Positions 4,138-23,142 of a DNA stretch of 36,339 bases are shown here, piece by piece. Source of the stretch: Candidatus Iainarchaeum sp. (GTDB lineage: Archaea; B1Sed10-29; WALL01); the NCBI GenBank assembly GCA_021162685.1, contig JAGGYF010000036.1:1-36339 (forward strand), given 5' to 3'. Numbering within the stretch: the first letter of the stretch is position 1; the number at the start of each line of letters is the position of its first letter. Below the pieces are notes generated by a model. That model was not told where the DNA came from. It did not search any database and worked only from the letters and a program-made list of their open reading frames with translations. The translations under genes and the position numbers were made by a program.

Positions 4138-4587
4138 ATGGACAAAATAGAATTCTTTGCTCAGGTTGGAAAATGGGTTGCAGTTAAGAAGATGAAAATT
4201 GATGAACACGTACAACCCATTGAAGTATGTAGGTTTTTGGTTTCAGTACATGAAACACTTGACAGAAAGATATGGGAATTCCTCTCGGATGATTTTGACC
4301 TGAAAGCATTGGAAAAGATCGCCGCAGATATCTGTGGTGCTGAGCTTACAAAAAAAGGTTGGCAGATAAAAGGCAGACTTTCTGAGGAGAAAATAAATCA
4401 GATATTGGCAAAACTGAAATCTCCAACTACATCAAAAGCGATCAACCAGATTGTAAAAAGTAAGAGGGGAAAAGAAATCGCCAAAACGTTTGTCACAAGA
4501 AAGGTACTAGAGATTCTTGGTTACCCAATAGAGCTGGAATCAAAACAAGTGGAGAAATACATAGATGAAAAACGATTGCAGGAATAA
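4138..4587 (+). CDS. Conserved archaeal hypothetical protein, DUF2666-like
   Basis: N-terminus IEFFAQVGKWVAVKKMKIDE resembles DUF2666 (from memory, not searched). Confidence 0.6.
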   Translation: MDKIEFFAQVGKWVAVKKMKIDEHVQPIEVCRFLVSVHETLDRKIWEFLSDDFDLKALEKIAADICGAELTKKGWQIKGRLSEEKINQILAKLKSPTTSKAINQIVKSKRGKEIAKTFVTRKVLEILGYPIELESKQVEKYIDEKRLQE

Positions 4588-4590
4588 TAT

Positions 4591-4598
4591 TTTTATAC
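4591..4598 (+). promoter_or_regulatory. Probable TATA box of the tRNA-Pro/tRNA-Leu transcript
   Basis: TTTTATAC about 30 bp upstream of the first (truncated) tRNA-Pro 5' end. Confidence 0.55.
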
Positions 4599-4613
4599 AC
4601 GGAGATGAATAAA

Positions 4614-4738
4614 CTTCCAGCAAATAGTGGGGCTGTGGGGTAGCTGTGCAGCGTCCCTAGGGGAAACCTCTGCGGGTTTCCCCTGGCTACCCTGGGAAGC
4701 CCACCCCTTCCAGCAAACAATGGGGCTGTGGGGTAGCT
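4614..4738. mobile_element. 61-nt hairpin element (4646-4706) flanked by 32-bp direct repeats that include tRNA-Pro nt 1-17
   Basis: 4614-4645 vs 4707-4738 differ at 2 positions; the insert is homologous to 22490-22551. Confidence 0.85.
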
Positions 4739-4794
4739 TGGTATCCTGCGGGCTTTGGGAGCCTGTGACCTGAGTTCAAATCTCAGCAGCCCCA
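4722..4794 (+). tRNA. tRNA-Pro(TGG)
   Basis: GGGGCTG/CAGCCCC acceptor, CGGGC-TTTGGGA-GCCTG anticodon arm, TTCAAAT T-loop. Confidence 0.97.
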
Positions 4795-4830
4795 TTACTT
4801 AACAGCGTAGTTTTGTTGAGGAGCACCAAT

Positions 4831-4916: not shown

Positions 4917-5242
4917 CTGACCAAATTACATATGGTCGTTCGTAGTGTGGCATAAAGCCACACTATTAGAAATCATTGAAAGGAAGGGGTGTGGAATCCG
5001 AGGGTACGCAAAGCGAAGCAAGGGAGTATATCCCCATAGTATGCTCTGCGCTTCGCATTGCGCAGGGGGAACCTGGGTTCCCCATAAAGGACGCTCTGAC
5101 CAAATTACATATGGTCGTTCGTAGCGTGGCAGCCTTTTTCCGCTTCAGGCGGAAAAAGCCTGGGGAAAGTATAATCATGTTCGCCCTGCCGGCGAACAAG
5201 GACGCCTTCGGCGTTTTATGCTTACAAAATCACACCATTAGA
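4917..5242. repeat. Composite of small hairpin elements directly after tRNA-Leu: 36-bp direct repeat (4917-4952, 5096-5131), inverted long copy of the tRNA-Pro element (4982-5095), second element (5130-5242)
   Basis: Repeat copies are 35/36 identical; 5130-5213 nearly identical to 36189-36271; many GC-rich stem-loops. Confidence 0.85.
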
Positions 5243-10805: not shown

Positions 10806-10941
10806 GCCGGCGTAGCTCAGCCTGGTTAGGCCATGCGTCGTTGATGAAATCGGCGCAGGGACCAAAGCGCCAGACTCATAGGGATGGCATGAGCCCTCCG
10901 GAGATATCTGGAGGTCGCGGGTTCAAAGCCCGTCGCCGGCA
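10806..10941 (+). tRNA. tRNA-Met(CAT), elongator type, with two introns (10830-10865 in the D-arm; 10881-10905 at 37/38)
   Basis: GCCGGCG/CGCCGGC acceptor; removing both inserts restores the GCTC/GAGC D-stem and CCAGA-CTCATAA-TCTGG. Confidence 0.9.
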
Positions 10942-11029
10942 CTTTTTCTTAGTAATTGCAAGAAAATAGTTAAACTTTGATATGATAATGCCATAAAACT
11001 TATATATGTGAAAATAACATAATATTAAT

Positions 11030-15570: not shown

Positions 15571-15667
15571 GCCTCGGTAGCTTAGCGGTATAGCGCCGGT
15601 CTTGTACAGCCCAACAATATGGGCTAAAGATAACCGGAGGTCGAGGGTTCGAATCCCTCCCGAGGCT
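15571..15667 (+). tRNA. tRNA-Thr(TGT) with a 25-nt intron at 37/38 (15607-15631)
   Basis: GCCTCGG/CCGAGGC acceptor, CCGGT-CTTGTA|A-ACCGG, intron hairpin AGCCCA/TGGGCT. Confidence 0.93.
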
Positions 15668-22450: not shown

Positions 22451-22590
22451 AATGTCATTAAAAATATGTTATGGGATCGTGGGGTGGCTGTGCAGCGTCC
22501 CTAGGGGGCTTCGCCCCCTGGCTACCCTGGGAAGCCCACCCCTTCCCTCATAATGTCATCAAAAATATGTTATGGGATCGTGGGGTAGCT
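22451..22590. mobile_element. 62-nt hairpin element (22490-22551) flanked by 39-bp direct repeats that include tRNA-Pro nt 1-17
   Basis: 22451-22489 vs 22552-22590 differ at 2 positions; the insert is homologous to 4646-4706. Confidence 0.85.
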
Positions 22591-22646
22591 TGGTATCCTC
22601 GCGGCTTCGGGAGTCGCAGACGGGAGTTCAAATCTCCCCGATCCCA
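22574..22646 (+). tRNA. tRNA-Pro(CGG)
   Basis: GGGATCG/CGATCCC acceptor, GCGGC-TTCGGGA-GTCGC anticodon arm. Confidence 0.96.
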
Positions 22647-22776
22647 CTTCAGCTCCTTTCTTTTTAGAAAAAAGAAAGTAGTTGGCAGTCAAAGAAAAAC
22701 TAATCTTCTCTTCCTTTGAGAAGCATATTACTGTGGTGCAGCTTTCAGACGCCTTTTGGATCTCCCGATCCCACCA
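22632..22776. mobile_element. ~110-nt hairpin insert between the tRNA-Pro 3' end and a duplicated 3' end carrying CCA
   Basis: ATCTCCCCGATCCCAC (22632-22647) vs ATCTCCCGATCCCAC-CA (22760-22776). Confidence 0.75.
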
Positions 22777-22812: not shown

Positions 22813-22903
22813 CCCCGCTTAGCTCAGTCTGGTAGAGCGGTCGGCTGTAGATGGTAGCTCTGCCGATACCGACAGGTTGCCGGTTCAAATCCGGCAGCGG
22901 GGA
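22813..22903 (+). tRNA. tRNA-Tyr(GTA) with a 17-nt intron (22851-22867)
   Basis: CCCCGCT/AGCGGGG acceptor (C1-G72), GTCGG-CTGTAG|A-CCGAC. Confidence 0.93.
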
Positions 22904-22904
22904 T

Positions 22905-23034
22905 GCCCCGGTGGTGTAGTTCGGTTTATCATCTGGGACTGTCGTAGCCCTCAAGGGAAGAGGGTAGAGGGAGAAACCGTAGGTGTCTCCTCTGCAGATA
23001 TCCCAGGACTCGGGTTCAAATCCCGGCCGGGGCG
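22905..23034 (+). tRNA. tRNA-Asp(GTC) with a 55-nt intron (22945-22999)
   Basis: GCCCCGG/CCGGGGC acceptor, TGGGA-CTGTCG|A-TCCCA, BHB helix CTGT/GCAG. Confidence 0.92.
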
Positions 23035-23142
23035 CTTTTTTGTGGGGAACCGAGAGGTGCTCATTATAATATCAAATATAAATGCGTAAGCACTTGGAGG
23101 GGGATAGGATGAAAGAAAAGATAATTGCCCCCTTTATAAACC

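Follow-up and report, generated by a model that had tools for sequence, protein, structure and literature searches.

Several described systems resemble, each in part, the small archaeal element that is the subject of this article. Elements of the REP and IS200/IS605 types insert without duplicating their target and need a Y1 transposase, integration of the Cas1 type yields target duplications whose length is fixed by a ruler, and the transposing transfer RNA (tRNA) introns of Thermoproteales are related short sequences that occur at different tRNA positions, the D- and T-loop included, and are spliced at a bulge-helix-bulge. MITEs (miniature inverted-repeat transposable elements) are defined, in one account, by terminal inverted repeats and duplications of 2–10 bp (PMC11602168). 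In bacteria, inserts between long target duplications have been described that are single-occurrence gene cassettes of kilobase size (PMC2853133). Here, we report on a 36,339-nt stretch of DNA from Candidatus Iainarchaeum sp. (contig JAGGYF010000036.1), hereafter the window, to whose positions all coordinates refer unless another contig or locus is named; the genome that holds it is termed G000. Beside the tRNA-Pro(TGG) gene of the window, between two copies of a target segment, lies a 58-nt non-coding element, named E, that recurs in this and other genomes and is very probably mobile and non-autonomous.

E resembles MITEs, REP/RAYT elements and IS200/IS605-derived palindromes in being small, hairpin-forming, multi-copy and non-autonomous. 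Unlike MITEs, it lacks inverted repeats at both termini (its tail of 12–17 nt is one-sided), its duplications measure 13–67 bp, and no parent insertion sequence with E ends was found by self-blastn, by a search for distant repeats or among the open reading frames (ORFs) between E copies in a further genome (G081); unlike the REP and IS200/IS605 types, it comes with long duplications, and Y1 was not detected in the E-bearing genomes of its phylum. With Cas1-type integration, as in CRISPR repeats and casposons, it has in common that short DNA is inserted and tens of base pairs of target are duplicated, but the spread of duplication lengths, the same 'spacer' at all sites and the lack of Cas1 in those same genomes set it apart. 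The introns of Thermoproteales interrupt their tRNA, whereas E lies outside an uninterrupted tRNA, beside a duplicated fragment. Short and long interspersed nuclear elements (SINEs, LINEs), which insert by target-primed reverse transcription, are matched by E in its short, non-coding and non-autonomous nature, its variable duplications, its structured conserved end and the pairing of one fixed with one variable end (microhomology or extra bases); E differs from them in having no A-rich tail, in being archaeal, in its position at gene ends and in duplications of up to 67 bp, and a reverse transcriptase (RT) was found in none of 31 genomes of the phylum. As in integrase islands and plasmids in tRNA genes, including the tRNA-Thr fragment model for Caldiarchaeum (PMC3293823), a tRNA fragment may stand beside an intact tRNA, with a breakpoint in the T-loop and a repeat that reaches the 3' end; the repeats of such islands, however, belong to a kilobase recombinase-coding element, whereas those of E are target-derived, the insert has 58 nt, and D-loops and protein genes are targets, too. 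The bacterial inserts of PMC2853133 share with E long, variable, locus-specific duplications and an insert without recognisable mobility gene, and differ from this 58-nt structured archaeal repeat with its dozens of copies. E fits their long-duplication class, which is descriptive and comes without a known mechanism.

Results

E lies between direct repeats at two tRNA-Pro genes

The original prediction, made from the letters of the window alone, had a leader and the first part of tRNA-Pro(TGG) precede a small insert, with the intact gene behind it, and this arrangement was borne out. Positions 4614–4645 (plus strand, like all features of both tRNA-Pro loci), which comprise a 15-nt leader and tRNA-Pro nt 1–17, are duplicated at 4707–4738 with 30 of 32 bases identical, and the right copy runs into the intact gene (4722–4794) as recognised by ARAGORN and by the Rfam tRNA model (58.7 bits). 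The 61 nt that separate the repeats (4646–4706) consist of the trinucleotide GTG (4646–4648) and E in its short form (4649–4706), a hairpin with a C-rich tail supported by its fold, by covariation and by a covariance-model match at 4649–4711 (72.2 bits). Since E and the right repeat share CTTCC, its 3' end at 4706 is uncertain within 5 nt. The exact 61-mer occurs once in the window, with 0 occurrences expected from 100 shuffles.

The insert had also been claimed for the same nucleotide of the other tRNA-Pro gene, and indeed the breakpoint follows tRNA nt 17 in tRNA-Pro(CGG) as well (22451–22590). There, the left copy (22451–22489; leader plus nt 1–17, with G rather than A at tRNA position 14) matches the right repeat (22552–22590) at 37 of 39 bases; between them, at 22490–22551, stand the identical GTG, an E with a shorter hairpin tip (22493–22546; covariance-model match of 65.7 bits) and five extra bases, CTCAT. 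Right repeat and intact gene (22574–22646; ARAGORN, Rfam) together occupy 22552–22646. Thus, one junction is fixed and the other varies, the first copy having the CTTCC overlap and the second its extra bases, and the long target duplication leaves the hit gene intact, both as predicted. E contains no ORF and is multi-copy (see below), in line with the proposed tiny, non-coding and non-autonomous element; across the window only tRNAs reached the Rfam gathering score, and nothing credible matched E at E-values up to 10.

Other identities of the insert were considered and dropped, namely a guide RNA of the C/D-box or H/ACA type (box motifs are missing by eye) and a known ribozyme (no Rfam match). 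A bulge-helix-bulge intron appears unlikely, as the tRNA behind the insert is complete and uninterrupted and the fold predicted for 4614–4797 has no helix between the two repeats, no dedicated bulge-helix-bulge search having been made. In this fold, the left tRNA fragment pairs with the tail of E, and the two make up one domain that does not include the tRNA. A TATA-like box that may serve as promoter (4590–4599, plus strand) can be read upstream of the left repeat. The intact tRNA-Pro(TGG) now lies 93 nt farther from this box, and no comparable A/T box is apparent between E and the gene; the latter would then be transcribed from the old TATA box through fragment and E, with RNase P removing the long leader.

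Contigs assembled per run, from two runs of one study, span E and the left junction without differences (X1, 4300–4678; X3, 4516–4707), yet they do not count as independent support, since the best-matching sample may be the window's own source sample. The right junction, from E through the right repeat into the tRNA, was bridged by none of the listed per-run contigs, and none represented an empty site, which weighs neither way. A 57-nt skip at 5005–5063 in the contig alignment was rejected as a local deletion, for it reflects short-form E copies elsewhere in the genome. An assembly artefact is unlikely.

E is a structured family with one fixed and one variable end

A search of the genome and its relatives, as suggested along with the original prediction, turned up a family. 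G000 (1.11 Mb on 45 contigs, 98.4% complete, 39.6% G+C) holds at least 18 copies, with 18 matches to the 5' motif and one variant retrieved via nhmmer, and a covariance model was built from 11 copies. The consensus reads [C/G/A]AGCGTC, a variable hairpin, ACCCT[G/C/T]GG and a C-rich tail ending in ..CCCC(T)TCC. Most simply, E measures ~50–60 nt; forms with a nested extra hairpin reach ~95–115 nt, and composites with add-on modules ~170–180 nt. From nt 1 to about nt 46, it folds into a long imperfect hairpin, and the C-rich tail of 12–17 nt is present only at the 3' end.

Across 53 distinct sequences, 94.9% of pair cells are standard pairs, versus 79.9% in shuffles and 45–65% with slid partners, and 11 of the 17 hairpin pairs have changed on both sides, in an alignment that was fitted to the covariance model and hence leans toward structure. 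The first base of E and the variable base of ACCCTNGG form C-G in 26, G-C in 18 and A-U in 8 of the 53 sequences and are unpaired in one; since the first base pairs within the hairpin, the 5' end of E is the hairpin foot. This 5' junction is fixed at [C/G/A]AGCGTC and exact in more than 50 copies, a minority of which carry 1–6 extra bases in front of it (GTG at both window loci, CTA, CAAAA or AAA). The 3' junction takes three forms: an overlap with the target (CTTCC at tRNA-Pro(TGG), TGC or CC at other loci), 1–20 extra bases, or add-on hairpin modules of 50–120 nt that precede the right repeat. In one lineage (g6; copies G007:C28, L226 and L227), our reading of the sequence revealed within E a stretch of 10 nt that is exactly complementary to the D-arm of tRNA-Pro and ends where E is inserted.

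The window also contains a long-form E with an extra internal hairpin (4983–5096, minus strand; covariance model, 30 bits), which adjoins the 3' end of tRNA-Leu(TAA). It is flanked by two copies of a 34–35-nt module (5097–5130 and 4917–4951). Since other repeat families (family B, see below, and a longer 'C' module) have this module as their common 3' end, the two copies do not amount to a simple target duplication.

E is patchily distributed among DPANN archaea

E occurs patchily in two groups of small DPANN (Nanobdellati-labelled) archaea. According to the covariance model, it is present in 7 of the 31 genomes of the phylum (which equals the class among the genomes searched), that is, besides G000, in four of the five others of the same family and in both genomes of one genus in another family. 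A second group became apparent with G042, whose record is labelled Micrarchaeota: 15 of its 81 relatives carry E. One E-bearing genome of the window's own family bears the record label 'Nanobdellati archaeon'. A strict E pattern matched six metagenome contigs, all six being true copies; a loose pattern on genome contigs gave mostly chance matches among those listed, and of five listed loci that were inspected, three were true (L082, L101, L104) and two chance (L086, L045); in the viral contigs scanned, both matches were due to chance. Between E copies of two DPANN lineages, we read ~85–90% identity, while the G+C contents of the respective loci differ strongly. A full-text literature search, which did not extend to supplements such as the archaeal MITE list of PMC11602168, retrieved no description of an E-like element.

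Empty alleles, likewise suggested as a check, were found in three members of the same family: G004, G005 and G002 have the syntenic tRNA-Pro(TGG) locus without any interruption and with the same end of the upstream gene, and in G005 tRNA-Leu(TAA) also follows downstream. At tRNA-Pro(TGG), E is thus a gain specific to the lineage of G000. In the more distant G007 and in metagenome contigs L226 and L227, E sits in tRNA-Pro genes after nt 19, between repeats of 19–22 bp.

Target duplications are long, variable and locus-specific

We examined 61 copies of E, of which 56 could be scored, the flanks of the other five being too short. A duplication was called when a flanking direct repeat scored at least 26 and its left copy ended within 8 nt of the E 5' end. 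By this measure, 32 of the 56 copies, which include tandem pairs and related genomes and are thus not independent, have a flanking repeat, versus 1.15% of 2000 random positions in the same loci. Repeat length varies from copy to copy (13–67 bp). The repeats are specific to each locus, often with a few mismatches, and contain unique leaders and coding starts; because their sequences vary from locus to locus and are imperfectly matched, E itself is not their carrier.

Concerning target choice, the presumed preference for the tRNA 5' part and D-arm turned out too narrow, as E is also found at T-loops, tRNA 3' ends, small RNA (sRNA) genes and first codons. By our reading, about 13 copies are sense E elements that start 1–4 nt behind a tRNA 3' end, with a repeat from the T-loop to that end, some 11–12 lie antisense to the tRNA with the E 5' end in the T-loop, and about six are sense elements in the D-loop whose repeat extends 2–30 nt upstream of the tRNA. 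Wherever a tRNA-associated repeat could be delimited, its inner end falls within the D-loop or T-loop or at the edge of one of these, and nowhere else in the tRNA. Two further sites lie in C/D-box-like sRNA genes (box motifs by eye). At protein-gene starts, the repeat contains the ribosome-binding site (RBS), the ATG and 5–17 codons; an ornithine/aspartate carbamoyltransferase (OTCase) gene hit by E thereby retains its own RBS and ATG. A gene for a PIN/T2SSE ATPase is hit at two different codons in two genomes, and putative pilin-like genes, judged by their N-termini, are among the targets. Hits at the first or last bases of a gene leave one complete gene and a short decoy fragment. Selection for an intact gene copy explains why the repeats bracket gene ends; it does not explain the preference for the loops. 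The bases 5' of E vary by copy (..GCT, ..CAG, ..TAA, ..ATT, ..GAA and others) and form no conserved target word.

At the OTCase locus (L183, 1485–1589; contig C36 of G000), the ATG of the left repeat opens an ORF of 34 codons that runs through E and whose TGA stop overlaps the ATG of the intact gene (ATGA).

Some loci hold at least two exact tandem units of repeat plus E, with a period of 94–103 nt (in G004, L157/L162, L169/L174 and L178/L181; in G012, L159/L163). These are most simply attributed to slippage or unequal exchange between repeats; a CRISPR-like array was considered for them and dropped, as repeat and E both recur and the unit is hence a tandem duplication. Spread between paralogues occurs, too. 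L226 and L227 are the tRNA-Pro TGG and CGG genes of one lineage, with the same 8-nt leader behind E and different upstream flanks; since L227 has, behind E, the leader of the other locus, L226, E is also spread by gene conversion between paralogues. In the window, by contrast, each locus has a leader of its own, which speaks for a GTG-bearing subfamily having inserted twice.

Other repeat families share the long duplications

Repeat F, with five copies in the genome, starts with CAGCTCC and was read at 22651–22759 (plus strand), 4 nt behind tRNA-Pro(CGG). It is flanked by the segment of that tRNA from the T-loop to the 3' end (22632–22647) and by a copy of it (22760–22774), so that this gene has experienced insertions with duplications at both ends, by E at its 5' and by F at its 3' end. 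Family B comprises elements of ~52–58 nt, a hairpin with a CTTGT or CTTTATG loop plus ACGAACGNCCATATGTAATTTGGKC, between target repeats of 17–48 bp. It is often antisense at tRNA D-loops and adjoins the 3' ends of several tRNA-Leu genes; its copies in G000 are C15:21395–21487, C16:1093–1194, C31:240–388, C13:74, C19:21 and C26:66295–66510. Short inserts of still other families stand between direct repeats of 15–42 bp at tRNA 5' ends or gene starts of G000 (C17:1–138, C32:12451–12585, C42:1–127, C19:2201–2348 and C20:9026–9105). Long duplications in B, F and these others mean that the duplication belongs to the insertion process in these cells and not to the E sequence alone.

A few further features deserve mention. 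At the start of contig C26 of G000 (13–490), there is a CRISPR-like array with a 37-nt repeat and a period of 73–75 nt; no Cas1 was found in G000. Intron-bearing tRNA genes of the window are those for Thr-CGT, Leu-CAG, Tyr and Asp (10806–10942, 15571–15667, 22813–22903 and 22905–23035), and a tRNA-Pro(TGG) of the same family (L028; G003 C10:7223–7334) carries, at the canonical intron position, an insert of ~35 nt that is not E. ARAGORN reported only 26 tRNA genes in G000, and many tRNAs are probably interrupted in ways that this program does not model.

Discussion

The mobility of E, and its non-autonomous nature, are argued from several observations together: it is multi-copy and patchy in two DPANN groups, identity is high despite different G+C, there are empty sites, and the duplications are locus-specific. 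How it moves is less certain. That a mobile, non-coding E is inserted at staggered breaks, probably by target-primed copying, is the reading we favour, at just short of an even chance for the whole of it. A classical transposase or integrase is argued against by the variable duplication length, by the fillers at one junction and by the microhomology at the other, and these same traits fit either copying for which a target 3' end serves as primer or capture where breaks are staggered. The more specific proposal, namely that a discrete template, its end defined by the foot of the hairpin, is copied in target-primed fashion, appears possible, and we advance it with greater reserve. Two strand breaks 13–67 bp apart would open the target; in tRNA genes, one of them would fall just outside the gene and the other into the DNA of the D-loop or T-loop. 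Copying of the E template might then be primed by a target 3'-OH and would start exactly at the hairpin foot, sometimes after 1–6 untemplated or donor-derived bases. The new 3' end would be rejoined upstream via 0–5 nt of microhomology, and gap filling would duplicate the target, with the polymerase or nuclease acting in trans. The asymmetry of the junctions had already been likened to target-primed copying in the original prediction; the resemblance stands, while order of events, nature of the template (RNA or DNA) and enzyme are what we infer.

Several results weigh against this reading, among them those of the search for an enzyme. RVT_1, Prim-Pol, Cas1, Y1_Tnp and the TnpB zinc ribbon (Pfam) were searched for in the 31 phylum genomes, incomplete metagenome-assembled genomes (MAGs), with the 81 relatives of G042 and extrachromosomal DNA lying outside this search. 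RVT_1 was absent from all 31, including the seven with E, while a control search yielded RVT_1 matches in 3 of 14 known genomes. Prim-Pol was found in none, Cas1 in five genomes, none of them E-bearing, and Y1_Tnp in a single genome (G025) without E; accordingly, for the RT and HUH classes named in the original prediction, no candidate emerged. The TnpB zinc ribbon exceeded the cut-off in seven genomes, of which only G002 carries E. Long copies with the same ends, a search for which had also been suggested, were not seen either: self-blastn revealed no multi-copy unit above 1 kb that carries E, no multi-copy gene was found, and the ORFs between two E copies in G081 encode small membrane-like proteins. 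Nor was there a distant second repeat within up to 6 kb of the copies that lack a nearby one, the flank measuring 75–1,500 bases for most of the relatives' loci. To this come features of the copies themselves. No duplication was detectable in 24 of the 56 scored copies; E stands in either orientation relative to the loop breakpoint, which fits insertion of a double-stranded piece equally well; and the GTG common to both tRNA-Pro copies of the window could mean copying between paralogues. Besides, long duplications in several unrelated families point to a general host process rather than to an E-specific enzyme, and the pair counts favour structure by the way in which they were obtained.

Five other explanations have to be set beside target-primed copying. 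One dispenses with a dedicated enzyme: host replication or repair would copy hairpin-rich segments from locus to locus, by microhomology-mediated template switching or ligation of hairpin-protected flaps, at fork stalls in highly transcribed genes, and a return upstream would create the duplication. The long-duplication signature common to several unrelated families, the mosaic and composite elements (E-B-E, nested hairpins) and tandem arrays, the microhomology and filler bases at the junctions and the failure to find transposase, RT or Cas1 in the E-bearing phylum genomes all agree with this, and the conserved D-arm and T-arm sequences in which the breakpoints lie are a possible source of microhomology between tRNA genes. 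Against it stand the exact 5' end of more than 50 copies and the ~85–90% identity across two DPANN lineages, which a passive process leaves unexplained and which suggests horizontal spread or selection; moreover, no homology to donor loci is shared by the protein-gene targets. We consider it unlikely. Under strict SINE-like retroposition, an RT from a virus, plasmid or the host would reverse-transcribe an E RNA, released e.g. from the leader or trailer of a tRNA, at a nick in the target. The conserved structured end of E indeed recalls the stem-loops by which RTs recognise their substrate in LINE/SINE pairs, E often sits in transcribed tRNA leaders and trailers (with the ~13 copies just behind tRNA 3' ends), and both the variable duplications of 13–67 bp and the nature of the ends (a fixed one, at which extra bases occur now and then, and a variable one marked by microhomology and truncation) are of the expected kind. 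Yet RVT_1 is missing from every phylum genome, all seven E-bearing ones and the 98.4% complete G000 among them, the E patterns in viral contigs were chance matches, and, with respect to the target gene, E is inserted antisense as often as sense, all of which makes this route quite unlikely.

No more promising than retroposition is an integrase or transposase of unrecognised kind, comparable to Cas1/casposase or to Mycoplasma IS1630, whose staggered cuts would be very long and loosely spaced; E would be its minimal end. In its favour, a protein might bind to the conserved terminal motif and hairpin, F elements start with a similar CAGCTCC, and E is multi-copy and patchily distributed across lineages. 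Against it count the five-fold variation in duplication length and the variable 3' end with its fillers and microhomology, and neither Cas1 in the E-bearing phylum genomes nor a long element with E ends was found. There is precedent in PMC2853133, which describes long target duplications without known mobility genes in bacteria and gives 19–26 bp for IS1630. If E were instead mainly a functional RNA module under selection, for example a hairpin in a leader or trailer that keeps the decoy fragment sequestered, stops exonucleases or directs processing, it would have spread as a by-product when tRNA genes recombined with each other. The strong hairpin covariation, the single domain formed by left tRNA fragment and E tail in the predicted fold and the D-arm complement in G007:C28, L226 and L227 are in keeping with such a role; given the empty syntenic sites in three relatives, the occurrence of E on either target strand, in coding starts and beside unrelated genes, and the lack of an Rfam family, we deem it improbable. 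A remnant of a tyrosine-integrase element in a tRNA gene, or an assembly artefact, has almost no probability left and is largely refuted already. Repeats from the T-loop to the 3' end do have the form of classical tRNA att sites. They are locus-specific, however, including unique leaders and coding starts, rather than element-borne, their copies differ by point changes, and the insert has 58 nt and no ORF; against an artefact, the same structures occur in MAGs of different record series, and per-run contigs from two runs span the left junction together with the whole of E. Long att repeats of the tRNA-gene type are mentioned in PMC2853133.

A broader conjecture takes E, B and F together as a kind of prokaryotic mobile DNA without an element- or genome-encoded transposase or RT, host replication or repair writing hairpin-plus-tail modules, by target-primed or flap-type synthesis, into highly transcribed genes (tRNA, sRNA, pilin-like and others) at their ends, with 13–67-bp duplications and horizontal spread among DPANN archaea. 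As a package, we regard this as fairly unlikely. In terms of class, E counts as a small non-autonomous repeat, and it would be new in kind if no dedicated enzyme exists.

On the practical side, modules of the E type break assemblies, the decoy tRNA fragments may be miscalled by annotation tools, and genes acquire long structured leaders or short upstream ORFs. Should target-primed insertion of E hold true, E would be an abundant, delimited and horizontally spread archaeal element whose insertion signature, i.e. a long variable target duplication with one structure-defined and one microhomology-joined end, matches no known prokaryotic transposition chemistry. It would provide a testable system for insertion with long target duplication, which concerns bacteria, too, and for how tRNA genes gain flanking fragments and insertions at the D-loop and T-loop, which bear on the origin of non-canonical tRNA introns and split tRNAs. 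Finally, it would offer the same for the tolerance and spread of selfish DNA in the reduced genomes of DPANN archaea.

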